Assembly: GCA_038087875.1 (NCBI GenBank)
Contig: CM075978.1
Span: forward strand, 178,498,001-178,562,000
From: Malacoraja senta
Taxonomy: Eukaryota
Reading direction: 5' to 3'
DNA length: 64,000 bases
Part shown: positions 19,760 to 53,759 of the stretch, one piece after another
Layout of the letters: every line of letters begins with the position of its first letter
Position numbering within the stretch: position 1 is the stretch's first letter
Translations under genes and position numbers: made by a program
Notes under the pieces: generated by a model
Seen by the model: the letters and a program-made list of their open reading frames with translations, nothing else
The model's database searches: none
Told to the model about the DNA's origin: nothing

Positions 19760-20494
19760 AATACAATCATGGCTGATTTGCTCCAGGCCACAACAACTCT
19801 CCTACATTGCTACTCATGGGCCTCAATTCCCTCATCTTTTAAAATAATGTCTACCTACTTAAATACATTCAGTTATTTAGTCTGCCCAACCCTCCAAGAT
19901 ACAGAATTGCAGAGATGTTTCTATGCACCTTGGTTTTAAGTGACCACACCTTATTCTTGTAGCTGTGACCTCTTACTCACAATTCCACCACAAGTGAAAA
20001 CATCTCCAAATCTCCAGTCATAACTTTTCAGGACACACGTTTCAATCAGACTCTCTCTTTCTCTTAATGCAAATGAATGATGGAAGCGCATTCAAATCTC
20101 CTTGCAATGAAGGAATATTTAGATACCACATTTTCTTAGGAGATTAATTGTTTGGTTTAGATGTGTGGTAGAAGAGTTCACGTTAATGATGGAGCTCCAG
20201 AATTTGACATGAGCAGCCCAATTCGTTTACAGCTTGAAATTTCTTTCAAACTAAATAAATCCAGGATTCAAATAATTTCATGCTGAGCACGGACAATCAC
20301 AAAAAACTGTCACGAGCAAGTTTACATTGGCATGTTCAATTATAAATGTGGACATAAGTGTATGATGGAGCATAAAAAGGGGAAAATATTTGACTTCAAC
20401 ATGGGAACAGAAAAGTATATATGCACGTTAGCCCAAATATATTACTGCAGTTGTTTTTCACTTCTTGAAGTACATTATATTGCAGGGCGTATCC

Positions 20495-21865
20495 AAATCC
20501 AAGGCGTAGCTATGGGAACACGCATGGGCCCAAGCTGTGCCTGCCTCTTTGTAGGGTACGTCGAACAATCCTTGTTCGAGACGTACCATGGCCCTATCAC
20601 CGAACTCTACCTCCCCTACATCGACGACTGCATTGGTGCTACCTCCTGCACCCATACAGAACTCACTGACTCCATCCATTTCACCACTAACTTCCATCCG
20701 GCACTCAAATATACCTGGACCATTTCCGACTTCTCCCAACCATTTCTAGACCTCACTATCTCCATCGCAGGTGACAGACTACTGACCGACATCTACTATA
20801 AACCCAATGTCTATCTGGACTACACCTCTTCCCACCCTGCCTCCTGTAAGGACTCCATCCCCTACTCCCAATTCCTCCGTCTACACCGCATCTGCACCCA
20901 GGATGAGGTGTTCCAAACCAGGGCATCGGAGATGTCCTCATTCTTTAGGGAACAGGGGTTCCCCTCTTCTACTATAGATGAGGCTCTCACCGGTTTCTCT
21001 TCGATACCCCGCGACTCTGCTTTCACTCCCCTCCCCCCCCCACTCGTAACAATGGCAGAGTCCCCCTTGTCCTCACCTTCCACCCTAGCAGCCGTCACAT
21101 ACAACAAATAATCCTCCAACGGGACCCCCACCACTAGCCACATCTTCCCATCTCCTCCCGTTTCGGCTTTCCGCAGAGACCGCTCCGTCCATAACTCCCT
21201 GGTCAATTCGTCCCTTCCCACCTGAACCACCCCCTCTCCTGGTACTTTCCCTTGCAACCGCAGGAAATGCTACGCTTGTCGCTTTACCTCCCCCCTTGAC
21301 TCCATTCAAGGACCCAAGCACTCTTTCCAGGTGCGGCAGAGGTTCACCTGCACCTCCTCCAACCTCATCTATTGCATCCTCTGCTCTAGATGTCAGCTGC
21401 TCTACATCGGTGAGACCAAGCGTAGGCTTGGCGATCGCTTCACCCAACACCTCCGCTCGGTTTGCAATAACCAACCTGATCTCCCGGTGGCTCAGCACTT
21501 CAACTCCCCCTCCAATTCCGAATCCGACCTTCCTGTCCTGGGCCTCCTCCATAGCCAGAGTGAGGCCCACCGTAAATTGGAGGAGCAGCACCTCATATTT
21601 TGCTTGGGTATTTTACACCCCAGCGATATGAACATTGACTTCTCTAATTTCAGGTAATCCCTGCTTTCTCCTTCTTTCCCCTCCCCTTCCCAGCTCTCGC
21701 ATAGCCCACTGTCTCCGCCTCTTCCTTTCTTCTCCCCCCCCTCCACCCCCCCCCCCTCCACCCCCACATCAGTCTGAAGAAGGGTCTCGACCCGAAACGT
21801 CGCCTATTTCCTTCGCTCCATAGATGCTGCCTCACCTGTCGAGTTTCTCCGGCATTTTTGTCTAT
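20495..21865 (+). mobile_element. Penelope-like retroelement, 5'-truncated (RT plus GIY-YIG endonuclease), disrupted
   Basis: GVAMGTRMGPS and YIDD in ORF 20332-21111; NLIYCILCSRCQLLYIGETKRRLGDRF (GIY-YIG) in ORF 21331-21657; pyrimidine-rich 3' UTR. Confidence 0.92.
21771..21805 (+). ncRNA. Minimal type I hammerhead-ribozyme-like motif in the Penelope terminal repeat
   Basis: CTGAAGA (21774-21780), extra A, stem II GGGT-ctcg-ACCC, GAAAC, then GTC (putative cleavage after 21801); stem I is only about 2 bp. Confidence 0.55.
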
Positions 21866-30003: not shown

Positions 30004-31461
30004 TATTATTCTTTTTAAAAATATTTTTATTATAAGCAAACATATTATAAAGTATAGTAACATATTATAGTAAAAAAAAACTTTTCATATACATCAAGCA
30101 TACATTATTAAAATTGTCAATTGTCGATTAATTCTGCTTCTAGTGTTTTTTTAAATATATAGATGTAAAAAGAGAGATAGAAAGAAATAATTACAAATAT
30201 CAAAAAATAGAGGTGGAATGAATTACTTATAATACGTCATTGGAGATAAGTTCGTAGGTTATGAAGTATAATTTTACATCTAATCCCGAGTTCAAGCTTC
30301 AGTTGGGCTTTCGTGCTGGGCCAAACTATCCCTTCAGATAGTTAATGAATGGAGCCCATATTTTAACAAAAAGTTCTTGTTTGTCCATTAAGACAAGTCT
30401 AATTCTTTCTAGATGTAGGGTCTCCGACATTTCCACAATCCACATTTTAATTGTGGGGGTTATAGGGACTTTCCAAAATTTTAATATTAATTTTTTCCCA
30501 GTTATTATACTGTAGTCAAGGAAGTTTCTTTGGCTTGTTGTGAGTGTTAAACTTTGTTCTGTTATCCCAAGTATTATTAATTTTGAGTCTGGATCCAATT
30601 TAGTATTAACAACTTCAGAAATTATTTCAAAAATATCAGTCCAGAAATGTTTGTACAATTTGCAAACGTATGTGTTAAATTGGCCTCTAGATGCAGACAT
30701 TTATCACAGAAAGGAGAAATATGTGGGAAGATTCTATTTAGTTTTATTTTGGAGTAATGTAATCTGTGTAAGACTTTAAATTGTATTAAAGCATGTCTAG
30801 CATTTAACGAACATTGATGTATATGTTGTAAACTTTCGTCCCAAATATCTTTCGTTATAGGATGACCTAACTCATTTTCCCATGTGTGTTTATACAGTTC
30901 CATCGGTGGTACCTCGTTGTTTAAGAGGGTGTTATAAATATAAGCTATTCATTTTTCAGTGTTAGGATGCTTATTCAAACATTCATCAAGAATTTCTGGT
31001 TCCCTATAAAATTCTGTATTAGATTTAACATAATCTCTAATTTTTAGATATCTGAAGAAATTATTTGAGTGCAGTCCATGATTCTGTTGTAACTCTTGAA
31101 ATGAAAGAAAAATGCCTTTCCTATAAAGATGTCCAATCTTTTTAATTCCATAATTTTTCCATTGTGTGAAACCTTTATCCAATATGGATGGCTTGAATAA
31201 AGGATTATTTACAATGGGAAGACATAGTGGTATATTATTCAGTTTTAAAGCTTTTTTTAATTGTTTCCAAATTTGTATTCCACTATGTATTATAGGGTTT
31301 TCCTTATAGTTTTTTTTTATGCAGTTTTGTGGGAGCAAATATAATCGAACCAATTTCAAAAGGTAATCAGTCTTCCTTTTCCATCCTTAACCATTCTGGT
31401 TGTTGATCCATTTCTTCCAGCCAGAAATTCATGTTTTTAATATGGACTGCCCAAAAATAAA
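30004..31461 (-). mobile_element. L1-clade LINE, 5'-truncated (ORF2 C-terminal region plus 3' UTR), inserted in a CR1 fragment
   Basis: QFKVLHRLHYS...CDKCLHLEANLTHTFANC zinc-binding region and KIWAPF C-terminus; A-rich tail; 10-bp TSD ataaaattat at 29994-30003 and 31462-31471; CR1 sequence on both sides (29925-30003, 31462-31810). Confidence 0.85.
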
Positions 31462-38190: not shown

Positions 38191-41100
38191 ATGTTCATAT
38201 GGTTCCCACTCATTTTACACAAACCTACAGGTCAGACCTTTATTACACACAAGCAGTACATAAAAGCCACTTACCACTTATAGCAATATTGGCTCTTGAG
38301 CAGAAGATTTCATCACATCATTTGCTGGCCTATTGAGGTTAGTGTAAGGAATGTCCATTTCTGCAATGCTTCAGATGTCTTTGTATTGATGTTGGTTTAT
38401 TATTGTTAGGCTTACTATGATACAGTTAAAAAAACTGTTTGCATTCCATCCAGTCAAATCAAACTACACATGATTACAATCAAGCCATACACAAGTATAA
38501 TGCAAAGAGAAAAACACCAGAGTGGAGAACGTGTTACAGCATGATAGTGTAACAATTACAGAGGAAAAAGTGCAAGGTAGGTTGGAAGATAAGGCTGCAC
38601 CCTAGCCAGAAGGTACAGAAGCTTGTAAGCATGCACCACCAGACTCAGAAACAGCTTCTTCCCCTCTGTTAGCATGCTTCTGTATGGTTCTTCCATAAGC
38701 TAGGGTACTTCCCAATTCACTTCTAACCCATTGCAGACATTGGAAATTTGTCAATGAAACGGAGGCATTACAATGCCACGTACTATATTCTGCACATGCA
38801 TATATCTTCCCCTTGGCTCTATCTATCATACTGGAACTTGACGATTGTATTTATGTATCGTGTTATGTGATCCGATTGGATAGCATGCACAACAAAGCTT
38901 TTCACTGTACATCAGTGCACGTGCCAATCATACGCCTAAACCTATCCATTTTGCTGGTGACTGCCTGTCAAGTCTCTGAAATCTATCAGTCCAAGAGTGT
39001 TGACTTCACCTGAGCCAAGCACAGTACTTTTGGATCCAAGGTGGTCTTGCCTTCAAACTCCATTCAAGACCTGCAACTGTATGGTGCTTACTGCCAATTT
39101 TCTGTAATAAAACCACACCCAAGATTATTTTTTGATTTTGGGGTGGATAGAACAACTCCCAATAAATTACTAAATGAGGAACAGATCGGCTCAACTGATG
39201 TTAAAGTCATCGACAATTCCAAAACCACGACCTCGAGTATGTTGTTGCAGGACCAGCAAATGCAGGTTTAAATCTCACAAAGCAGAATGCAGTCTTAAAA
39301 TAATTAGAAAACGTGCTTATAACAAAAAAATTATTGATGTCAAACAGTTCGGCTTATACACGAGGCTCCAAGAGAGGATAATAAAGATATTGCATATTAG
39401 AAATAGTGTTTCCTGCAATCAATTGTTAGTTACAGGATATTTGCAAAAACGGCCTTTTATTTAAAAAAAATACAGCTGTCATCTTGCTGAAAAAATATCA
39501 TGTAGACGACTTCGAACTGGAAGAATATGTTGTTTTGAGAATAAGATAATAGTTAATTTTTTCAACATGACGAGAAGAATTTAATTCTGTTTCTTGTTGA
39601 CTCTGGCAATTGAATGTCATACTGATTGTGTTGCATGGTTTGACTGGATAGTACAAAGCTTTTCAATGTATCTTGGTACATTTGACAATAATAAACTAAT
39701 ACCAATAAATATGGCTTTCCCATGTGCAATATATGGTCTTATCTGCAGATTATACTGGCCTAGAGATAACATTACACAAAAAAAAATTACAGAAGCATTG
39801 GAATTCTGGGAAAATCAATTACTGCCTGAACTTTGTGTGGGAGTAAAAAGGATAGTTAAATGTACTGGAGGAGTTGCTAAAGAACAAAGTTCTGCCATCA
39901 ATTTGTTCTCAGTCAGTCCTCATAAAAAAGGAGCTATCATCTTCCTGGCAAACTGCTTCCTAAACCATGAAGGCATGCCACACTCGGTGTCTCAGTCACT
40001 TTGTTGTTTTTGCTTTAATCAATGGCTTGGAACACAAGTGACATAAATGGGGAAAGTGGGCTGCAGACAGGACTCTGTAGTCATGGCAACACAGTATGTG
40101 CATCAAGACTCACTCTAACTAGCAGCTTTGACTAGCTCTTTAAAACAAATGCAGAGCGATCAGAACATTGCTTAAATGCCCACAGATACTTTTCTTACCA
40201 TTTATAATTGCATTGCCATTTTGAAAATGCTTTCCCAAGTAGCAAACATACCAAATTCAAGTAAAAGTCTAATTAACTGCATGTTCCATCTGGAGTTAAA
40301 TTCCTGATCCAAGTAATACCATGAGGCTCCTGAAACTACTTTGGGTTGTATAGGAATTGCACGATGGGCAGAAAGTGATAAATTAGTACATGATCGCAGT
40401 GGGTCAATGAGTCCCGCATACTTGCTCCACCATTCAACCAGATTGTACGGCCACTCACATTAAGTTTCCACTACTAGCCCAATTCCCAGCTTAATATCAT
40501 CAGAAAGCTTGGATATTTTACACTTAATCACCCCATCCAAACCTTTGGTATAGATTGTGAACAGCAGGGGCACCAGCATGGGTCCCAGTATCCCTCCACC
40601 TATTTGTTCCCATTTTCTGCCAGATCACCAACCCTCCAATCACTCTGATGTATCACCCACAATGTGTGCACTCTAATTTTGTTACATAATAATTTATTTT
40701 GCCTTGACATGACTAACTATGCCGAGGTGACTACGGAGACATAATACAAGAGTGTGATTGATACAAGTGCAAGTACAAGTTCATAACTTCTAGGAGCATA
40801 ATTAGGCCATTCGGCCCATCAAGTTTACTCCACCATTCAGTCATGCCTGATCTCTAAGAGGTCCTGAAAGGAGAATTTAGGGAGTTGGGAGGAGAGTTAA
40901 GGAGAAGGACCGCAAAGGTAACAATCTCAGGATTACTACCTGTGCCACGCGACAGTGAGAGTAGGAATGGAATGAGGTGGAGGATAAATGTGTGGCTGAG
41001 GAACTGGTGCAGTGGGCAGGGATTCAAATTTCTGGATCATTGGGGCCTCTTTTGGGGAAGGTGTGACCTGTACAGAAAGGACGGGTTGCACTTGAACCCG

Positions 41101-43067
41101 AGGGGGACCAATATCCTGGCGGGGAGATTTGCAAAGGCTACTGAGGAGACTTTAAACTAGAACGGTTGGGGGGAGGGACTCAAATAGAGAAAGCTAGTGG
41201 AAAATGTGGGAGGCAGGAGGCAGAGAAGGGAAGCACTCGGACCCAAAATGTAGGGGAGAAAGAAGTAAAAGATAATAAACAGAGAATAAGTGGTGGTGGG
41301 TTTCTTAAATGTGTACATTTTAATGCTAGGAGCATTGTAAGAAAGGTGGATGAGCTTAGAGCCTGGATTGACACCTGGAAGTATGATGTTGTGGCGATCA
41401 GTGAAACATGGTTGCAGGAGGGCTGTGATTGGAAACTAAATATTCCAGGATTTCGTTGCTTCAGGGGTGATAGAATTGGAGGGGCAAGAGCTTGTCAAGG
41501 AAGATATTACAGCAGTGCTTTGGCAGGATAGATTAGAGGGCTCGTCTAGGGAGGCTATTTGGGTGGAACTGAGAAATGGGAAAGGTGTAGCAACACATAG
41601 GGGTGTATTATAGACCGCCAAATGGGGAGCGAGAATTGGAAGAGCAAATATGTAATGAGATAGCAGATATTAGTAGTAAGCACAAGGTAGTGATTGTGGG
41701 AGATTTCAATTTTCCACACATAGACTGGGAAACACATTCTGTAAAAGGGCTGGATGGTTTGGGGTTTGTAAAATGTGTGCAGGATAGTTTTTTGCAGCAA
41801 TACATAGAGGTACCTACTAGAGAACAAGCAGTGCTGGACCTCCTGTTAGGAAATGAGACAGGGCAGGTGGCGGAGGTATGCGTTGGGGAGCACTTCGGGT
41901 CCAGTGATCACAATACCATTAGTTTCAATATAATTATGGAGAGGGTCAGAACTGGACCTAGGGTTGAGATTTTTGATTGGAGAAAGGCTAACTTTGAGGA
42001 GATGCGAAAGGATTTAAAAGGAGTGAATTGGGACATGTTGTTTTATGGGAAGGATGTAGAAGAGAAATGGAGGATATTTAAAGGTGAAATTTTAAGAGTA
42101 CAGAATCTTTATGTCCCTGTTCAGTTGAAAGGAAATAGTAAAAATTGGAAAGAGCCATGGTTTTCAAGGGAAATTGGACACGGTTCGGAAAAAGAGAGAG
42201 ATCTACAATAATTATAGGCAGCATGGAGAAAATTAGGTGCTTGAGGAGTATAAAGAATGTAAAAAGAATATTAAGAAAGAAATTAGAAAAGCTAAAAGAA
42301 GATATGAGGTTGCTTTGGCAGGTAAGGTGAAAGTAAATCCAAAGGGTTTCTACAGCTATATTAATAGCAAAAGGATAACAAGGAATAAAATTGGTCCATT
42401 AGAGAGTAAGAGTGGACAGCTATCTGCAGAGCCAAAAGAGATGGGGGAGATATTGAACAATTTCTTTTCTTCGGTATTCACCAAGGAGAAGGATATGGAA
42501 TTATGTGAGGCAAGGGAAACAAGCAGAGTAGTTATGGAAACTATGAGATTCAAAGAAGAGGAAGTACTGACACTTTTGAAAAATATGAAAACGGATAAGT
42601 CTCCAGGTCCTGACAGGGTATTCCCTTGGACATTGAGGGAAGTTAGTGTAGAAATAGCAGGGGCTATGACAGAAATATTTCAAATGTCATTAGAAACGGG
42701 AATAGTGCCGGAGGATTGGTGTACTGTGCATGTTGTTCCGTTGTTTAAAAAGGGTTCTAAGAGTAAACTGAGATGATATATGCATGTGCCTTTAATATAG
42801 TGACCTCATCACTACTAACCACTCCCCATATCACAAGTATAACTACAACCTCCCCACCCACAGATCGCTCTCTAGTTCCTGTGACAGACCACGTACAGCT
42901 AGTGCAATATGTAATGCTCCAGTATGAATAAAGATAGTAAAGTAACGATGTGTCGTTAGAACTTCTTTACATGGTGTCATACCTCTTACCTTGCGCCTCC
43001 TGTCTATCGGTTTATCATTTAATTTTGTCCCAGTTTTTTGTTTCCCCAACCTTCTCATTTCCTCGTT

Positions 43068-43907
43068 ATGGCCACTTCTGCCCGTAAGCCTGATGTGCTC
43101 ATTTTCGATTCTGACATTGCCCATCGATGGGATGTCTTCAAATGTGACTTTGACCACTATGTCACGATCACTCATCCTGCCACCACCCCAGAGCTCACAG
43201 CCTCTCTGCTTCTCAACTTGGCTGGTCCCGAGGCCCTGGCTCGCTCAGACTTCTTCGTCTACGCTGCGGGAGAATCTGCTCGGGACCCGGTATGTCTGGT
43301 GGATAAGTTTATTGCTATTTGTGACATTCCAACAAACTGCATCTTAGAACGTTTTAATCTGTTCGCGCGGCGTCAGCTCCCTGGGGAATCTGCAGAGAAC
43401 TATGTCGCTGCGCTGCGGCACCTGGCCAGGCGGTGCCGCCTCAACACGCTGACCCCCGAGGAGATTATTAGGGACCTTCTGGTTTACGGTCTCCGCGACG
43501 ATAAGCTCAGGGCCGAACTTTTGCGGAGGCCCGATCTGACTTTTAACGATGCAATGCACGCCACTCGCTTGGCTGAGGCCGTCACCTCGGCGGTGTCACC
43601 GGCTGACCATGAGATTAACCTTGCCAGCACTTCCAGCCGTCTGATGAACACGCCCCGGTCGCGACCCCCGGGGTCACTCACTGCTCAAGGAGGACGTGCC
43701 CCGGGGTTCGGAACTGCTCCCGGGGGACGTGCCCGGCAAAGGTGCCCTAATTGTAACTTCACCACTCATCAATACAATGTATGCCCTGCCTTGGGTAAAA
43801 CGTGTAATGTCTGCAAGAAATTGAACCACTTCGCTGCGGCCTGTCGTTCCCATGGGAAGCCTTTCGCTGCACCGAGGTGCATTTTAAAACAACTTGGTAC
43901 AAGCTGA
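43068..43907 (+). pseudogene. gag: Gypsy Gag (two Cys/His knuckles), cut off from protease by a +1 lesion near 43885
   Basis: ATG at 43068; ERFNLFARRQLPGES; CPNCNFTTHQYNVC and CNVCKKLNHFAAAC. Confidence 0.9.
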
Positions 43908-46900
43908 TAGTGAGCTCAGCTCCCCGTGCTATTTCGACGGACAGTCTGTATCTGAATCCGACTCCTCTCAGGGGGAGAACAGCCTGTTTACTGTGTTGGA
44001 CGCACCTGCTATGATAACAGACCCTTCAGTTCGAGTAACTGTGAACAACTCGATCTTCACTGCTAAGATTGATACCGGGGTGGTTGCGAACATTATGTCA
44101 ACAACACTCTTCAACAAGATAAGAACTAATGAGCAGGTTTTTTCTGACAGCTCAACTTTGCATGCTTACGGGGGAGGGGTGCTTACTCCTGTGGGAAAGG
44201 CTACGCAAGATACTGGAGTCCTCTCGGCCCCTCACTTTCTATCTCCTCGATCAATAATGCATTACCCTGTTGGGTATCCAAGCATGCCAGGAAATGGGCC
44301 TGGTATCCTTCCACCGTGACATTCACCAGGTGCAGGCCCTCATGGACCCGTTGGCTGAATACCCCGACCGCTTTGATGATGAGCTGGGCAAACTGCCCTG
44401 CAACTACAAGATTGCAGTAGACCGCAAGATCGAACCAGTGGTCAATGAACCTCACCGTGTCTCCTTCGCCATGAAGGCCAGAGTGGAGTCGACGCTACAC
44501 AGCATGGTAAAAATGGGCATCCTAAAGGCGGTCATCGAGCCCACCAGGTGGGTCTCCACCATGATTGTTGCCGCGAAAAAGGACAAAAGCGAGATACGCA
44601 TTTGCATCAACCCCAAAGACCTCATCCTGGCCATTAAACGCCCACACTACCCTATGAGAACGGTAGAGGAAGTCGCTGCACAGGTTGGTCCGGCAACGGT
44701 CTTTTCTGTCCTCGATGCCAAAAGCTCCTTCTGGCAAATACCACTTGACGAGCAGTCCTCCATCTTGACAACTTTCGCCACCCCCTTCGGCAGATTTCGG
44801 TTTCTCCGAATGCCATTCGGAATCAACTCTGCCAGCAAGGTATTCCCACGGACAATGGAACAGCTGTTTACCGATCTACCGTGCGCCATCATCGTTGACG
44901 ACATCCTCGTTTACGGTAAGGATGTCGCCGAACACGACTTCAGCCCCCGCCAGGTCCTAGACCGGGCCCGGAAAATCAACTTGAAACTGAACCCCAAGAA
45001 GTGCCGATTTCGCGTCCCGGAGGTCACCTATGTTGGACATGTATTCACCGCCGAGGGGCTGAAACCCAACCCGCAAAAAACGGCTGCCATTTCCGGGATG
45101 CCTTCTCCTACTGATGTGGCAGGCCTACAACGCTTCCTGGGCATGGTGAACTACCTGGGGAAGTTCATCCCCAACCTCAGCGAGCTCAGCGCTCCCCTGA
45201 GGGATTTGATAAAAAAGGATACGTCCTGGGTTTGGTTCCCCCACCACCAGGAAGCCTTCGACTTCCTTAAATCCAAGCTAATCAGTACCCCCACACTCAA
45301 GTTTTTTTACCTGCAGCGTCCCATTGTCCTCACCTGCGACGCCTCTCAGTTCGGACTCGGTGCCGCCTGTCTCCAGGACCATGACGGCCTACAGCTGCCT
45401 GTCTCCTTCGCATCCCGCACCATGACCGCCACCGAACAGCACTACGCGCAGATCGAGAAGGAGCTACTGGCCGTGGTGTTTGCCTGCTCCAAATTCAAAG
45501 ACTACATCCTGGGCAACACTTTCACCATTGAAACTGACCACCAGCCGCTTGTCACCATTCTCAACAAATCGATCCATGTGGCCTCATCCCACCTGCAGCG
45601 CATGATGCTGCAGCTCCAGCGCTTCACTTTCAACGTGGTTTATCGTAAGGGCAAGGACATGTTCGTGGCCGACACGTTGTCTCGCGCCCCGCTAATGTCC
45701 ACCGTTCGCCACCCCTATGAGATGTCTGATCTGATGGGGCTCCAAGTGAACATCGTCCCTTCACAGCAGATGAAGTCCCTGGTTGAATACACTGCCAATG
45801 ACCCTGCCCTGCAACAGCTTTCTGCCGTCATCCAGCGGGGCTGGCCCGACCGTCGTTCCGCTTTGCCGGCTGGCGCCGTGCCCTACTTCCTGGTCCGTGA
45901 CGAGCTCGTACTACACGACGGCGTGGTGGTGAAGGGTCACAAGGTGGTTGTGCCTGCTGCACTGCACGACCACTATTTTCAGGTCGCTCACCGCGGACAT
46001 CCTGGGGCCGAAGCCACCGTGTCTCACGCCCAGAGCCAGTTCTATTGGCCTGGTATGGCCCAATACATCCGGGAGAGGGTCTCCTCGTGTTCCACCTGCA
46101 ACAGTCTGGCCCCCCACCAGCAGCGTCAGCCGCTTCTGCAGCAGCCTGCCCCCGAACTGCCCTGGATGGCGGTTGCCGTAGACATTTTCGAGTGGCGGGG
46201 CAAACACTTCCTGGTTGTCGTTGACTCCTACTCCAGCTGGTTCGAGGTCGACCAGCTGCACACCCTAACCTCTTCGGCCGTCATCGACAAGTTAGGCCAT
46301 CATTTTTGCACTTTTGGCCCCCCGGCAAGCCTGCAGTCGGACAATGGCAGCCAGTTCACGAGCTCCGAGTTTAAAGCTTTCGCTTCCAGATGGAACTTCC
46401 ACCATTTCACCTGCAGCCCGGAGTACCCGCAAAGCAACGGTCTGGCCGAGCGCGCCGTCCGCAGTGCAAAGAACTTGCTGGAACAATGTCGTTTATCCAA
46501 CTCCGATTTCTATCTGGCCCTCCTCAATCTCCGCAATATCTCCCGCGACTCTGCCATGGGTTCCCCTGCTCAGCGGCTCATGTCTCGCGCTACCAGACTC
46601 CCGCTCCCTGTGGCCCAGCGCTCCCTCATACCGTCTGTCCTCACGCCTGCTGCTGTTCAGAAATGCATTGCCTTCAGGCACGATGTCCAGAAGCGTTCCC
46701 ATGACAGGTCCTGCCACCCACTGCCGCGCCTCTTCCCCGGTCAAGTTGTCCGCATGCAGACCCCTTCCGGTCACTCCAAGCTCGCTACCATCATCGGCTC
46801 TGCGGGGTCGCCCAGGTCTTATCTCGTCGACCATGCGGGAACCATTTACCGACGGTCCCGCCAGCACCTTCGGCTCGTCAACGAGCCGCGGCCGCCTGCC

Positions 46901-47221
46901 GCGGATCCCTTTGCTCCCCCACTGCAGTTTCCGCGTCCGGGCGATGCTCTGCCCGTCCTTCCTAACATGCAACGGTCTACACCACCTCAACTCCTTCCGT
47001 CCCACCCTACTCCGGCTAGTCCTCACTCGCCTGCCTGCGCTCTGCCCGCATCACCTCCGGTTCTGGTGCCGCGGTCTTCTCCGTCTCCTCCCGTTTCCCC
47101 CTTTCCAGTTCGTCTGTCCCCATCGGTGCCTCTTCATCCTGCCGGAAGGGAGGATGGCGAGATGCGAACCCGGTCGGGACGTGTTGTCAAACCGCCTGTC
47201 CGCTATGGCGATTTTGTTTAA
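43894..47221 (+). pseudogene. pol: Gypsy Pol: protease (disrupted), RT, RNase H, integrase
   Basis: IDTG protease motif; frameshift near 44205 and in-frame TAA at 44255; then 983 open codons with LDAKSSFWQI, MPFG, VDD, DAS/EKE/TDH, HHCC and D,D,E (AVD, SDNG, AER). Confidence 0.93.
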
Positions 47222-48701
47222 CCGTCCTAGCGCATGAGCCGTGGTCGCCCTGTCACTATTGTATTTGCCGGTCGTTTCCAAGGGGAAGGATGTAGATGAT
47301 ATATGCATGTGCCTTTAATATAGTGACCTCATCACTACTAACCACTCCCCATATCACAAGTATAACTACAACCTCCCCACCCACAGATCGCTCTCTAGTT
47401 CCTGTGACAGACCACGTACAGCTAGTGCAATATGTAATGCTCCAGTATGAATAAAGATAGTAAAGTAACGATGTGTCGTTAGAACTTCTTTACATAAACC
47501 TAGCAATTATAGACCTGTTAGTTTGACGTCAGTGGTGGGCAAATTAATGGAAAGGATACTTAAAGATAATAGATATAAGCATCTGGATAAACAGGGTCTG
47601 ATTAGGAACAGTCAACATGGATTTGTGCCTGGAAGGTCATGCTTGACTAAGCTTCTTGAATTTTTCAAAGAGCTTACTAGGGAAATTGATGAGGACAAAG
47701 CAGTGGATGTTGTCTATATGGATTCAGTAAGGCCTTTGACAAGGTTCCTCATGGAAGATTGGTTAAGAAGATTCAATTGTTGGGTATTAATGGTGGAGTA
47801 GCAAGATGGATTCAACAGTGGCTGAATGGGAGATGCCAGAGAGTAATGGTGGATGGCTGTTTGTCAGGTTGGAGGCCGGTGACTAGTGGGGTGCCTCAGG
47901 GGTCTGTGTTGGGTCCACTGTTGTTTGTCATGTACATCAATGATCTGGATGATGGTGTGGAAAATTGGATTAGTAAGTATGCAGATGATACTAAGATAGG
48001 TGGTGTTGTGGATAATGAAGTAGATTTTCAAAGTCTACAGAGAGATTTAGGCCATTTGGAAGAGTGGGCTGAAAGATGGCAGATGGAGTTTAATGCTGAC
48101 AAATGTGAGGTGCTACATCTCGGCAGGACAAATCAAAATACATGGTAAATGGTAGCGAATTGAGGAATGCAGTTGAACAGAGGGATCTAAGAATAACTGT
48201 GCATAGTTCCCTGAAGGTGGAATCTCATGTAGATAGGGTGGTAAAGAAAGCTTTTGGTGTGCTAGCCTTTATAAATCAGAGCATTGAATATAGAAGTTGA
48301 GATGTAATGTTAAAATTGTACAAGGCATTGGTGAGGCCAATTCTGGAGTATGGAGTACAATTTTGGTCGCCTAATTATAGGAAGGATGTCAACAAAATAG
48401 AGAGAGTACAGAGGAGATTTACTAGAATGTTGCCTGGGTTTCAGCAACAAAGTTACAGAGAAAGGTTGAACAAGTTAGGTCTTTTTTCTTTGGAGCGCAG
48501 AAGGTTAAGAGGGGACTTGATAGAGGTCTTTAAAATTATGAGCGGGTTAGACAGAGTGGACGTGGATAAGCTTTTCCCATTGAGAGTAGGGAAGATTCAA
48601 ACAAGGGGACACGACTTGAGAATTAAGGGACAGAAGTTTAGGGGTAACTTCTTTACTCAGAGAGTGGTAGTTGTGTGGAATGAGCTTCCAGTGGAAGTGG
48701 T

Positions 48702-51700
48702 ACATAGATACATAGAAAATAGGTGCAGGAGTAGGCCATTCAGCCCTTCGAGCCTGCACCGCCATTCAATATGATCATGGCTGATCATCCAACTCAGTAT
48801 CCCGTACCTGCCTTCTCTCCATACCCCCTGATCCCTTTAGCCACAAGGGCCACATCTAACTCCCTCTTAAATATAGCCAATGAACTGGCCTCAACTACCC
48901 TCTGTGGCAGAGAGTTCCAGAGATTCACCACTCTCTGTGTGAAAAAGTTTTTCCTCATCTCGGTCTTAAAGGATTTCCCCCTGATCCTTAAGCTGTGACC
49001 CCTTGTCCTGGACTTCCCCAACATCGGGAACAATCTTCCTGCATCTAGCCTGTCCAACCCCATAAGAATTTTGTACGTTTCTATAAGACCCCCTCTCAAT
49101 CTCCTAAATTCTAGCGAGTATAAGCCAAGTCTATCCAGTCTTTCTTCATATGAAAGTCCTGACATCCCAGGAATCAGTCTGGTGAACCTTCTTTGCACTC
49201 CCTCTATGGCTATAATGTCCTTCCTCAGATTTGGAGACCAAAACTGTACGCAGTACTCCAGGTGTGGTCTCACCAAGACCCTGTACAACTGCAGTAGAAC
49301 CTCCCTGCTCCTATACTCAAATCCTCTTGCTATGAAGGCCAACATACCATTCGCTTTCTTCACTTCCTGCTGCACCTGCATGCCTACTTTCAATGACTGG
49401 TGTACCATGACACCCAGGTCTCTCTGCATCTCCCCATTTCCTAATCGGCCACCATTTAGATAATAGTCTGCCTTCCCGTTTTTGCCACCAAAGTGGATAA
49501 CCTCACATTTATCCACATTATACTGCATCTGCCAAACATTTGCCCACTCACCCAGCCTATCCAAGTCACCTTGCAGTCTCCCAGCATCCTCCTCACAGCT
49601 AACACTGCCCCCCAGCTTAGTGTCATCCGCAAACTTGGAGATGTTGCTTTCAATTCCCTCGTCCAGATCATTAATATAAATTGTAAATAGCTGGGGTCCC
49701 AGCACTGAGCCTTGCGGTACCCCATTAGTCACTGCCTGCCATTGTGAAAAGGGCCCGTTTACTCCTACTCTTCGCTTCCTGTTTGCCAGCCAGTTCTCTA
49801 TCCACATCAATACTGAACCCCCAATACCGTGTGATTTAAGTTTGTATCCTAATCTCTTATGTGGTACCTTGTCGAAAGCCTTCTGAAAGTCCAGATACAA
49901 CACATCCACTGGTTCTCCCCTATCCACTCTACTAGTTACATCCTCGAAAAATTCTATAAGATTCGTCAGACACGATTTACCTTTCGTAAATCCATGCTGA
50001 CTTTGTCCAATGATTTCACCACTTTCGAAATGTGCTGCTATCCCATCTTTAATAACTGACTCTAGCAGTTTCCCCACTACCGATGTTAGACTAACTGGTC
50101 TGTAATTCCCAGTTTTCTCTCTCCCTCCCTTCTTAAAAAGTGGGATTACATTTGCTACCCTCCAATCCTCAGGAACTACTCCAGAATCTAAAGAATTTTG
50201 AAAAATTATCACTAATGCATCCACTATTTCTGGAGCTACTTCCTTAAGTACTCTGGGATGCAGCCTATCTGGCCCTGGTGATTTATCGGCCTTTAATCCA
50301 TTCAATTTACCCAACACCACTTCCCGACTAACCTGGATTTCACTCAGTTCCTCCATCTCCTTTGACCCGCGGCCCCCTGCTATTTCCGGCAGATTATTTA
50401 TGTCTTCCTTAGTGAAGACGGAACCAAAGTAGTTATTCAATTGGTCCGCCATATCCTTGTTCCCCATGATCAATTCACCTGTTTCTGACTGGAAGGGACC
50501 TACATTTGTTTTAACTAATCTCTTTCTCTTCACATATCTATAAAAACTTTTGCAGTCAGTTTTTATGTTCCCTGCCAGTTTCCTTTCATAATCTATTTTC
50601 CCTTTCCTAATTAAGCCCTTTGTCCTCCTCTGCTGGTCTCTGAATTTCTCCCAGTCCGCTGGTATGCTGCTTTTTCTGGCTAATTTGTACGCATCATCAT
50701 TTGCTTTGATACTATCCCTGATTTCCCTTGTTATCCACGGATGCACTACCTTCCCTGATTTATTCTTTTGCAAAACTGGGATGAACAATTTTTGTAGTTC
50801 ATCCATGCAGTCTTTAAATGCCTTCCATTGCATATCCACCGTCAACCCTTTTAGAACTAATTGCCAGTCAATCTTGGCCAATTCACGTCTCATACCCTCA
50901 AAGTTACCTTTCTTTAAGTTCAGAACCGTTGTTTCTGAATTAACAATGTCACTCTCCATCCTAATGAAGAACTCAACCATATTATGGTCACTCTTGCCCA
51001 AGGGGGCACGCACAACAAGACTGCTAACTAACCCTTCCTCATTACTCAATACCCAGTCTAGAATAGCCTGCTCTCTCGTTGGTTCCTCTACATGTTGGTT
51101 TAGATAACTATCCCTCATACATTCCAAGAAATCGTCTTCCTCAGCACCCCTGCCAATTTGATTCACCCAATCTATATGTAGATTGAAGTCACCCATTATA
51201 ACTGTTTTGCCTTTGTTGCACGCATTTCTAATTTCCTGTTTGATGCCATCCCCAACTTCACTACTACTGCTAGGTGGCCTGTACACAACACCCACCAGCG
51301 TTTTCTGCCCCTTAGTGTTTCGCAGGTCTACCCATACCGATTCCACATCCTCCAAGCTAATGTCCTTCCATTCCACTTCGTTAATCTCCTCTCTAACCAG
51401 CAACGCTACCCCACCTCCTTTCCCTTTCTCTCTATCCCTCCTGAATATTGAATATCCCTGGATGTTCAGCTTCCAGCCTTGGTCACCCTGGAGCCATGTC
51501 TCCGTGATCCCAACTATATCATAATCATTAATTGCTATCTGCACGTTCAACTCATCCACCTTATTACGAATGCTCCTTGCATTGAGACACAAAGCCTTCA
51601 GGCTTGTTTTTACAACGCTCTTATTACGTTGAAAAGTGGCTCTTTTTGATTTTTGCCCTGGATTTGTCTGCCTGCCACTTTTACTTTTCACCTTGCTACC

Positions 51701-51958
51701 TATTGCTTCCGCCCGCATTTTACACCCCTCTGTTTCTCTGCTCACCCATTTAAGAACCCCACCACCTCTTATTCTCTGTTTATTATTGTTTTCTTCTTTC
51801 CCCCCTACATGTTGGGTCTGAGTGCTTTCCTTCTCTGCCTCCTGCCTCACACACTGTCTAATAGCATTCTCTATTTGAGTCCCTCCCCCCAACCATTCTA
51901 GTTTAAAGTCTCCCCAGTAGCCTTTGCAGAACTCCCCGCCAGGATATCGGTCCCCCTC
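48702..51958 (-). mobile_element. CR1-A LINE, young, truncated within ORF1, inserted antisense in CR1-B
   Basis: Tail at 48702-48790; tggt at 48698-48701 and 51959-51962 (4-bp TSD); the flanks rejoin to match 63950-64000. Confidence 0.95.
48794..51892 (-). CDS. CR1 ORF2, uninterrupted 1032 aa (APE endonuclease plus reverse transcriptase)
   Basis: [43 protein letters not shown]; the annotated start is TTG, not ATG. Confidence 0.93.
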   Translation of the reverse strand: MGGGTQIENAIRQCVRQEAEKESTQTQHVGGKEENNNKQRIRGGGVLKWVSRETEGCKMRAEAIGSKVKSKSGRQTNPGQKSKRATFQRNKSVVKTSLKALCLNARSIRNKVDELNVQIAINDYDIVGITETWLQGDQGWKLNIQGYSIFRRDREKGKGGGVALLVREEINEVEWKDISLEDVESVWVDLRNTKGQKTLVGVVYRPPSSSSEVGDGIKQEIRNACNKGKTVIMGDFNLHIDWVNQIGRGAEEDDFLECMRDSYLNQHVEEPTREQAILDWVLSNEEGLVSSLVVRAPLGKSDHNMVEFFIRMESDIVNSETTVLNLKKGNFEGMRRELAKIDWQLVLKGLTVDMQWKAFKDCMDELQKLFIPVLQKNKSGKVVHPWITREIRDSIKANDDAYKLARKSSIPADWEKFRDQQRRTKGLIRKGKIDYERKLAGNIKTDCKSFYRYVKRKRLVKTNVGPFQSETGELIMGNKDMADQLNNYFGSVFTKEDINNLPEIAGGRGSKEMEELSEIQVSREVVLGKLNGLKADKSPGPDRLHPRVLKEVAPEIVDALVIIFQNSLDSGVVPEDWRVANVIPLFKKGGREKTGNYRPVSLTSVVGKLLESVIKDGIAAHFESGEIIGQSQHGFTKGKSCLTNLIEFFEDVTSRVDRGEPVDVLYLDFQKAFDKVPHKRLGYKLKSHGIGGSVLMWIENWLANRKRRVGVNGPFSQWQAVTNGVPQGSVLGPQLFTIYINDLDEGIESNISKFADDTKLGGSVSCEEDAGRLQGDLDRLGEWANVWQMQYNVDKCEVIHFGGKNGKADYYLNGGRLGNGEMQRDLGVMVHQSLKVGMQVQQEVKKANGMLAFIARGFEYRSREVLLQLYRVLVRPHLEYCVQFWSPNLRKDIIAIEGVQRRFTRLIPGMSGLSYEERLDRLGLYSLEFRRLRGGLIETYKILMGLDRLDAGRLFPMLGKSRTRGHSLRIRGKSFKTEMRKNFFTQRVVNLWNSLPQRVVEASSLAIFKRELDVALVAKGIRGYGEKAGTGY

Positions 51959-53759
51959 TGGTGGAGGCAGGTTCGATGTTTTTCTTTAAAAATAGATTGG
52001 ATGGGTATATGGACGGGAAAGGAATGGAGGGTTATGGTCTGAGTGCAGGTAGATCGGACTAGGGGGAAGTAAAAATTTTTTTTTAAAAGAAAAGAAAGTG
52101 TTCGGCACGGACTTGAAGGGCCGAGATGGCCTGTTTCCGTGCTGTTATGGTTATATGGTTATATCTATCTTTCCCACTCAACCCCATTCTCCTGCTTTCT
52201 ATCCATAACCCCCAGGCATCCGTACATATTAATAATCTGTCAATTTCCACCTTAGAAATGTCCATTGACTTGCCCTCCACAGCTGGTGGACAAGCAGGTC
52301 TTAGCCACTCAAACCTCAATTGTATTTATTCTGATTGCTATCGCGATTTAGAATCAGACAGCACAGAAACAGACACTTCAGCCCACACCGACCATCAACC
52401 ATTCCCCATTTTATACTCCCACTGATCCCATATAATTCTCCTCACATTCCAATCAACTCCCCCCCAGATTCTAGCACCCAGCAACAATAGGGATTATTAA
52501 CAGCCACCAATTAACCTGCATCTCCTTAGAACGCGAGAGGCAACTCTCATATCCAGGAAGGAGAATGTGCAAACTCCACCTAGACAGTGAGGTCAGGATT
52601 GAACCCAAATTAAGATAGCATTTCTACTCACTACACCCCTGTGTTGCCCCATATTAACCTTTCACCCCCATCTTTATCAAGTACCCGATTGCATATATCT
52701 ACCAGTTGCCAATATGCTTGGGATTTTTAGGGACAGTGGGAAAACTATATTCATGAAAAATAAAAAAGATATTTAATCTAGTGTAACCGGTCTGCACCTC
52801 TTGGGCAGGAGAAAGTTCCTGACAAGCATCATTTATAGCCCTGTCTTGGAATCATCTCACAACTTATTGGTTGTACAATCACTACCTTGAAGCCAGTGTG
52901 CGAGCCAACATTTACAATGTATTCTGGGCGAGCGGGCGGGGGAGGGGGGGGGGAGTTGGAATACCCAGACACACAAACTGGAAAAGTTAGATGAAATGTA
53001 ATAAAGAAAAACCGTGCACGAGACTAGAAGCTGAACTAAGAAATTAGTAAGAAAATAGGAGAGAAGTATGTACAGTCATGGTGACTAGTTCAGTTACAGG
53101 AGTTCAATGCAGTGGCCTGGCCTAACTCAGACCTGCTCCCTCAGTTCTTACCCATGTACTTTGATAACTTTCCACCCACTTTTGTGACCTATCTTGGACC
53201 CTTTATTAGGCCACCCTTGCAAGGGATACATTAGCTACCAACACACGAGTCTATGGTCATTTCACCAACACACAAGTCTATGGTCTTCTCCAACTTCACT
53301 TCCTACTTTGGGCAGGAGTGGTCCAAATGTCCCCTCATGCTACTCTGCCATTTAAGAAGATTATGGCTGATCCAATTAGAATCTCAACTCGATGTGCTCG
53401 ACTATTGCTGGTAACATTTCCACCACCTTGTCAAAAATCTACCAACCCCTGCCTTAGAGTCAAGCCTTTCATTTTCCCGCAGTCTGAGGTAGAGTTAGAA
53501 AGAGTTGTGACCATCAGAAAAATAAAATTTGCTTGTCAGGTCTTAAACAACCCTAGTCCTAAATTCTCTCAAAGGATCAAATCTCCTCATATTCACCCTT
53601 TCAACAACCTCAAAATTTTAAGGTTCAATCAAGTTTCCTAACCTCTTCTGGACTGCACAGAATGCAAGCCAACCTGTTTAACAATTCAAAGCCCCAATTT
53701 CTCCGAATTCATTTTATCTGTTCTAATGACTGCACCCTTTGATACCAATGCTTCGGAGT

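Follow-up and report, generated by a model that had tools for sequence, protein, structure and literature searches.

Two copies of a CR1-class long interspersed element (LINE) lie in a 64,000-nucleotide (nt) stretch of the Malacoraja senta genome (assembly GCA_038087875.1, contig CM075978.1, positions 178,498,001 to 178,562,000 of the forward strand), referred to below as the window. In both, the first open reading frame (ORF1) ends in the slippery heptamer U_UUA_AAC immediately before its stop codon, and the second (ORF2) lies in the -1 frame. As judged from comparison of the sequences, CR1 elements whose ORF1 includes an esterase domain probably use programmed -1 ribosomal frameshifting at this heptamer to produce an ORF1-ORF2 fusion, the likely source of their endonuclease and reverse transcriptase (RT). 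An earlier reading of the window, made from the DNA sequence alone (the sequence-only reading), had proposed such a shift and aligning the junctions of divergent CR1 families as a check. The phase-conserved heptamer was found in all four families sampled from the same genome and in two families with 32-36% ORF1 identity, and G_GGA_AAC takes its place in a distant group, which supports the proposal.

Under this mechanism, most ribosomes would terminate directly 3' of the heptamer and so yield abundant ORF1 protein (ORF1p, ~311 aa). A few percent would slip, with tRNA-Leu and tRNA-Asn re-pairing from UUA-AAC to UUU-AAA, and then read on to give a minor fusion of ~1,300 aa with the predicted family-A junction ...ETLN-LERLGGG.

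The junction in the two window copies

Copy 1 reads ACT TTA AAC TAG at 41149-41160 on the plus strand, with TTTAAAC at 41151-41157 and TAG at 41158-41160. As the sequence-only reading had stated, a -1 shift leads into the ORF2 frame. This frame gives FKLERLGGG and runs on into the endonuclease motif NARS. The same bases, TTTAAACTAG, were found in identical phase on the minus strand at 51907-51898 (copy 2), and the two occurrences of TTTAAACTAG in the window compare with 0.20 expected, two being reached in 3 of 100 shuffles. In copy 2, the -1 frame is unbroken for 1037 codons from the heptamer and includes the endonuclease and RT domains. As first described, the ATG just 3' of the stop in copy 2 is not in frame, and ACG stands at that place in copy 1.

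The ORF1 includes an SGNH/GDSL esterase domain, and the ORF2 an APE endonuclease followed by an RT, without long terminal repeats (LTRs). Pfam PF13472 matched the window ORF1 fragment with E=2.4e-06, which is under the curated cut-off, and also matched most homologues, whereas PF03372, PF14529 and PF00078 matched within 48797-51985. The closest named ORF1 homologue, from a skate, is 88% identical. Assignment to CR1 is suggested by the domain layout, the 3' microsatellite tail and the ORF1 homologues present in birds, turtles and lizards.

Copies 1 and 2 align closely over ~210 nt spanning the site, including ~170 nt of linker, and are ~88% identical at the junction; copy 2 then continues into a different ORF2. 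When the downstream part of copy 2 was used as the query, 16 of the 20 loci fetched reached the same junction, and copy 2 therefore represents a recombinant subfamily, designated B. Hence, although the bases and phase reported for copy 2 were correct, the copies are not independent, and the pair alone is weak evidence because both belong to one lineage at the junction. Similarly, the TGA at 41142-41144 said to close the -1 frame is present but is not a general feature, being private to one of 30 family-A loci. Upstream of the site, the -1 frame is open for 28 codons in 27 of these loci, and only copy 1 is closed two codons upstream.

Conservation of the heptamer in the M. senta genome

The M. 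senta set includes 107 loci from four families (A-D), 103 of which reach the junction. Loci were retrieved using a site-containing query for family A, downstream DNA only for family B, and ORF1 proteins for families C and D. TTTAAAC was present in phase at 98 of the 103 junctions, namely 29/30 in family A (a count inflated by the site-containing query), 16/16 in B (20 fetched), 12/12 in mixed A/B loci, 26/30 in C and 15/15 in D. The esterase parts of families A, C and D are 64-66% identical to one another. ACT, GAT or GTT precedes TTA AAC, and any of the three stop codons (TAG, TAA, TGA) follows it. When the distant families described below are included, the residue before the Leu-Asn encoded by the heptamer varies (T, D, V, F, Y), as do the stops, while the seven bases are constant.

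The X_XXY_YYZ heptamer lies in the zero frame, and its conservation at the nucleotide level goes beyond coding need. Based on the codon use of each family, the joint chance of the needed synonymous codons is 0.006, 0.026, 0.020, 0.15, 0.12 and 0.009 in the six families, and 8e-6 for the three most distant lineages alone. TTTAAAC occurs at no other place in 3.6 kb of six elements.

This genome holds ~25,000 ORF1 candidates. Own-genome searches at overly strict thresholds with P0012, P0020 and P0015 returned no loci, and the sampling covers families A-D. The families are modular, with an ORF2 of one type joined to three ORF1/junction modules (L032-L050, L081-L092 and L150-L164). Crossovers between modules fall in the linker near GGTTTCTTAAATG, and the reading frame is always kept.

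Conservation in distant DNA and proteins

A scan of prokaryote genomes identified 22 loci, mostly on animal-host contigs binned into metagenome-assembled genomes (MAGs), with a best ORF1 identity of 32-36%. The non-duplicate loci holding the ORF1 end comprise 14 of one family (Inv1) and two of another (Inv2), and TTTAAAC was found in phase in 13/14 and 2/2, respectively. Their junctions read TTT or TAT, then TTA AAC TAG, followed by a G-run, and the ORF2 frame is shut six or three codons upstream of the heptamer in 7/14 Inv1 and 2/2 Inv2 loci. The animal LINE DNA binned into bacterial MAGs (L093-L107; G001-G003) is likely host contamination of public records, as are the LINE ORF1 proteins P0023 and P0293 filed as Pseudomonas aeruginosa and Klebsiella pneumoniae.

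Searches for ORF1 proteins gave 299 matches, including 228 with a DGxH motif, 209 of which have a tail of 20-50 residues. The tailed homologues end in LN (162), GN (10) or otherwise (37), and after dereplication of the tails at 70% identity (n=71), 36 end in LN, nine in GN and 26 in neither, though two of the search profiles (A2 and A7) were made from LN-ending proteins and inflate the LN counts. Tails of 22-39 residues ending in LN were seen in named species of shark, ray, teleost, frog, lizard, snake, turtle and bird. Residues that have no NNT codon (K, E, Q, M or W) precede LN in only 1 of the 36 dereplicated tails, as compared with a background of 16% (p=0.013). GN is preceded by Gln in 9 of 10 proteins, which is what G_GGA_AAC would need. 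Of the 15 loci from a metagenome scan, two have a GN end, and the DNA of each has G GGA AAC there (GCG GGA AAC TAG in L135, CAG GGA AAC TAC TAG in L136). A GN-type protein searched against three host-containing MAGs found only LN-type loci already in the set, and no relative was detected in viral contigs scanned with three alignments.

Tails ending in SKN, FFR and FFH are compatible, at the protein level only, with further heptamers. F-K-L occurs at the junction place in the -1 frame in stingray and tortoise gene models that are frameshifted. The stingray model P0333 (...GGFKLDVQG...) was the sole esterase-endonuclease fusion among 2694 candidates, and it was rejected as evidence for an in-frame family, being read as a single copy that gained a base upstream. 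CR1 ORF1 pieces also lie inside host gene models (P0030, P0333, P0287, P0308 and P0297) that carry the names 40S protein S24, hydroxyacid oxidase 2, NUBP1, steryl-sulfatase and beta-parvin, and these are annotation artefacts or exonised repeats.

Since most homologues keep LN unchanged in the protein, the heptamer could be the by-product of a C-terminal Leu-Asn motif needed by ORF1p. ORF2 would then be expressed from a separate RNA, from a spliced one, or by initiation resembling that at an internal ribosome entry site (IRES), perhaps with participation of the G-run. For LINE ORF2 in general, IRES-like initiation is a published suggestion (PMC3894237). However, a need at the protein level would not fix TTA, AAC and the preceding NNT, and ORF1 of L136 extends one residue past GN. 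As far as they are listed, the transcript data described below also give a weak indication against a separate RNA, and this explanation is considered highly improbable.

The ORF2 frame and its start codons

The linker between the heptamer and NARS is 56, 111, 67 or 83 codons long in the M. senta families and 38-111 codons overall. The downstream ORF is in the -1 frame and open from the heptamer in most in-frame copies (28/30 (A), 12/12 (B), 11/12, 15/21 (C), 15/15 (D), 8/8 (Inv1), 1/1 (Inv2)), and in none of these is the linker open in either of the two other frames. Linkers reshuffled by recombination likewise remain in frame and open in the -1 frame only.

In all seven long-open family-A copies, the first Met of ORF2 is codon 267-268, which is past the endonuclease motifs NARS (57), ETW (84), GDFN (189) and SDH (256-257), and initiation at this AUG would therefore yield an ORF2 product that lacks the endonuclease. 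The sequence-only claim that ORF2 has no early AUG thus holds for family A but fails for copy 2, where the first in-frame AUG is codon 63 (51718-51716), preceded by four out-of-frame AUGs. In Inv1 and Inv2, Met is found only after NARS. Hence, three of the six families (A, Inv1 and Inv2) have no usable ORF2 AUG. A conserved in-frame AUG, which the sequence-only reading had taken as speaking against frameshifting, is present upstream of the endonuclease in B, C and D, but not in A, Inv1 and Inv2.

Given these start codons, termination-reinitiation was considered. Ribosomes that had terminated at the ORF1 stop would restart on UAAUG in family C, on an AUG further downstream in families B and D, and on some codon other than AUG in the families without one, and ORF2p would be a separate protein. 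Family C has an in-frame stop-start AUG (TAA-TG) in 21/21 in-frame copies, in-frame Met codons occur in B (codon 63) and D (codon 35), CUG overlaps the stop in D, and TTG is codon 6 of the family-A -1 frame. Such routes have precedents, as SART1 employs UAAUG (PMC3708506, PMC3894237) and AUG-independent initiation is thought likely for L1 ORF2 (PMC5009743). However, UAAUG with its AUG in the ORF2 frame is confined to family C and absent from A, B, D, Inv1 and Inv2. Copies of the family-C ORF2 have, moreover, also spread behind junctions of the A and D types, which have no UAAUG; a C-type ORF2 sits behind B, C and D junctions, always in frame, and two of these three have no UAAUG. The AUG of family B follows four that are out of frame and lies 180 nt from the stop, and the first 10 codons of Inv1 include no near-cognate start. 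Reinitiation would also leave unexplained the fixed synonymous codons of the heptamer and the change to G_GGA_AAC. It is therefore an unlikely general route to ORF2, though it may be additionally active in family C. As this family (L051-L080) bears both the slippery heptamer and UAAUG, it is a naturally occurring case in which two ways of making ORF2 could be compared.

Besides these start codons and the inflated counts mentioned above, several further results weigh against frameshifting as the explanation. In 55 colinear A/B copies, where only shared variants were considered, 2 of 24 linker variants were synonymous in the -1 frame (25% expected), and purifying selection on the linker codons was not detected, while on the ORF1 side of the same copies 13 of 30 were synonymous in frame 0 (27% expected). 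None of the 24 linker variants creates a stop (not significant). As few variants are synonymous and none is a stop, the linker appears to be kept open with its residues free to change. At the protein level, the 26 of 71 dereplicated tails that end in neither LN nor GN stand apart from the pattern. The two GN-type contigs, L135 and L136, stop short of ORF2 and do not reveal its frame, and three weak relatives (L137, L138 and L141, 23-26% identity) lack an in-phase heptamer. Finally, folding of six downstream segments was no better locally than that of shuffled sequences (z +0.37 to -0.71), and a duplex scan of positions +4 to +30 along 20 longer stretches found no partner common to the families.

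Transcripts across the junction

Fusion of the frames at the RNA level, through polymerase slippage or editing that adds one base at the T/A runs, would likewise require an open -1 frame, and runs of T4-T6 are present in some families. Family A, however, has only T3-A3, and runs of this length are not known to suffice for polymerase slippage. G_GGA_AAC is also better suited to tRNA re-pairing than to polymerase slippage. In one polyA RNA run from a related animal, covering the junction ~990-fold, no joint, no indel in at least 10% of reads and no pile-up of start sites was seen at the junction among those listed, a weak result since 15 of 281 joints were listed and ~6% of the run was sampled. 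This counts, within that limit, against a base added at the site and against a separate or spliced ORF2 RNA. Fusion in the RNA is the least probable of the explanations considered, and frameshifting during translation is preferred.

The region downstream of the heptamer

A G-rich tract downstream of the site had been put forward as the stimulator. The tract is present and its position is conserved, but no stable local fold was obtained for it. In copy 1, TT at +9 is followed by G6 at +11 (41168-41173). A run of at least five G starts at +11 in families A, B, C, Inv1 and Inv2, while the start is +8 in D and +12 in L135; the probability that such a run starts in a given 5-nt window elsewhere in these elements is 0.3-1.3%. 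In family C, 17/30 copies have a run of this length and 12 have a shorter one. Two-tier G-quadruplex (G4) patterns are possible in A, B, C and D, while Inv1 and Inv2 have one G-run and no G2x4 pattern. If the G-run 8-12 nt downstream is the stimulator, which is the weakest step of the proposed mechanism, it would act as a protein-binding site or G4 and not as a hairpin or pseudoknot.

Comparison with known systems

According to PMC5009743, U_UUA_AAC and G_GGA_AAC belong to the heptamers most prone to shifting. In heptamer class and phase, and in the fusion of a structural ORF to a polymerase ORF at a low ratio, the CR1 junction resembles the gag-pol sites of retroviruses and LTR elements, the U_UUA_AAC site of coronaviruses and PEG10/PNMA-type sites (PMC5009743). 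It differs in that no pseudoknot or stem was found 5-9 nt downstream, and the element is a non-LTR element with no protease that would cleave the fusion.

Two possible parallels exist for the G-run. [quoted passage not shown] For five of seven lineages the start of the CR1 G-run is +11, but the likeness is an analogy only, as the CR1 motif is G-rich whereas that of PRRSV is C-rich and protein-bound. Synthetic G4s placed 5-8 nt past UUUAAAC gave up to ~7% -1 frameshifting (PMC3919603), and natural G4-stimulated -1 frameshifting was stated in 2016 to be not known (PMC5009743). Families A, B, C and D can form two-tier patterns, in contrast to the three-tier synthetic G4s, and Inv1 and Inv2, with a single G-run, depart further.

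Among non-LTR elements, Dictyostelium TRE5-A and TRE3-A need a -1 frameshift for ORF2 according to a figure legend in a 2018 review (PMC5911963). They are likewise APE-type with two ORFs and with APE and RT in ORF2, but reside in an amoeba and have an unrelated ORF1, whereas the elements described here belong to an animal CR1 clade and have an esterase ORF1, an X_XXY_YYZ heptamer at the stop and a G-run. In the available portion of a 2016 recoding review, HeT-A is the only non-LTR element named as needing a frameshift, and L1 ORF2 is given as a case of unusual initiation (PMC5009743). Family C resembles SART1 and L1 in having UAAUG with the AUG in the ORF2 frame, but UAAUG is missing from five of the six CR1 families, while the heptamer is found in all six.

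Translation initiation of LINE ORF2 has been called an open question (2013 commentary PMC3894237; PMC3708506). No report of a frameshift at the CR1 junction was found in the literature searched, and the available portions of PMC11835228, PMC4255032, PMC6609765, PMC2734521, PMC5006619 and PMC3708506 do not mention one, though the original CR1 papers lay outside this literature and an earlier remark in print is possible. The junction would represent a known mechanism in a host class for which no report of it was found, with a candidate stimulator only. CR1 is the main bird repeat and makes up 11.8% of chicken chromosomes (PMC11835228). If the frameshift is real, it would answer the question of ORF2 translation for the CR1 clade, tether the RT to the coiled coil and esterase of ORF1, explain the frequent lack of an ORF2 AUG, and point to a type of stimulator without classic RNA structure. 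Tentatively, and with a somewhat less than even chance of being right, this may hold throughout the esterase-ORF1 branch of CR1, in hosts ranging from invertebrates to birds. RT would then be made only as a Gag-Pol-like fusion, through a -1 shift for which the conserved G-run at 11 nt downstream, serving as a host-protein site or as the first G4 stimulator found in nature, would be the driver instead of a pseudoknot, and standard ORF2 annotations would miss the N-terminal third.

Features of the window

Features of copies 1 and 2 are listed in Table 1.

Table 1. Positions of CR1 features in the window.
Feature	Position	Strand	Evidence
3' part of CR1 ORF1 with SGNH/GDSL esterase domain, ending ...ETLN* (copy 1, family A, 5'-truncated)	40858..41160	+	ORF list, Pfam
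TGA in the -1 frame, private to copy 1 (TGG in the other 29 family-A loci)	41142..41144	+	
Candidate slippery heptamer U_UUA_AAC in the ORF1 frame (ACT TTA AAC)	41151..41157	+	29/30 family-A loci
Predicted ORF2 start in the -1 frame, comprising a 56-codon linker without AUG and the first endonuclease motifs; indels break copy 1 thereafter	41151..41531	+	
ORF1 stop TAG adjoining the heptamer; families C and D have TAA and TGA, respectively	41158..41160	+	
G-run G6-A-G3 starting 11 nt past the heptamer; position-conserved candidate stimulator without stable fold	41168..41177	+	
Further broken ORF2 pieces of copy 1, as far as the inserted LTR retrotransposon	41591..42770	+	
Rest of copy-1 ORF2 (RT pieces) past the insertion; ORF pieces 47469-47801, 47693-48148 and 48301-48774	47496..48774	+	
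Copy-2 ORF2, unbroken in the -1 frame over 1037 codons	48794..51907	-	ORF list, Pfam
Heptamer and stop of copy 2 (subfamily B); 5' truncation ~55 nt upstream	51898..51907	-	

The retrotransposon that interrupts ORF2 of copy 1 (42771-47495, plus strand) is of the Ty3/gypsy type and looks like a young insertion. Its two 202-nt direct repeats are identical, its RT-RNaseH-integrase frame is open over 987 codons, and its gag, protease and pol parts are in different frames. Further retroelement fragments of the window lie at ~20287-21657 and 30326-31386. They are an RT piece with a GIY-YIG-like frame after it, which by eye resembles Penelope, and minus-strand ORF2 pieces of L1/Tx1-like type.
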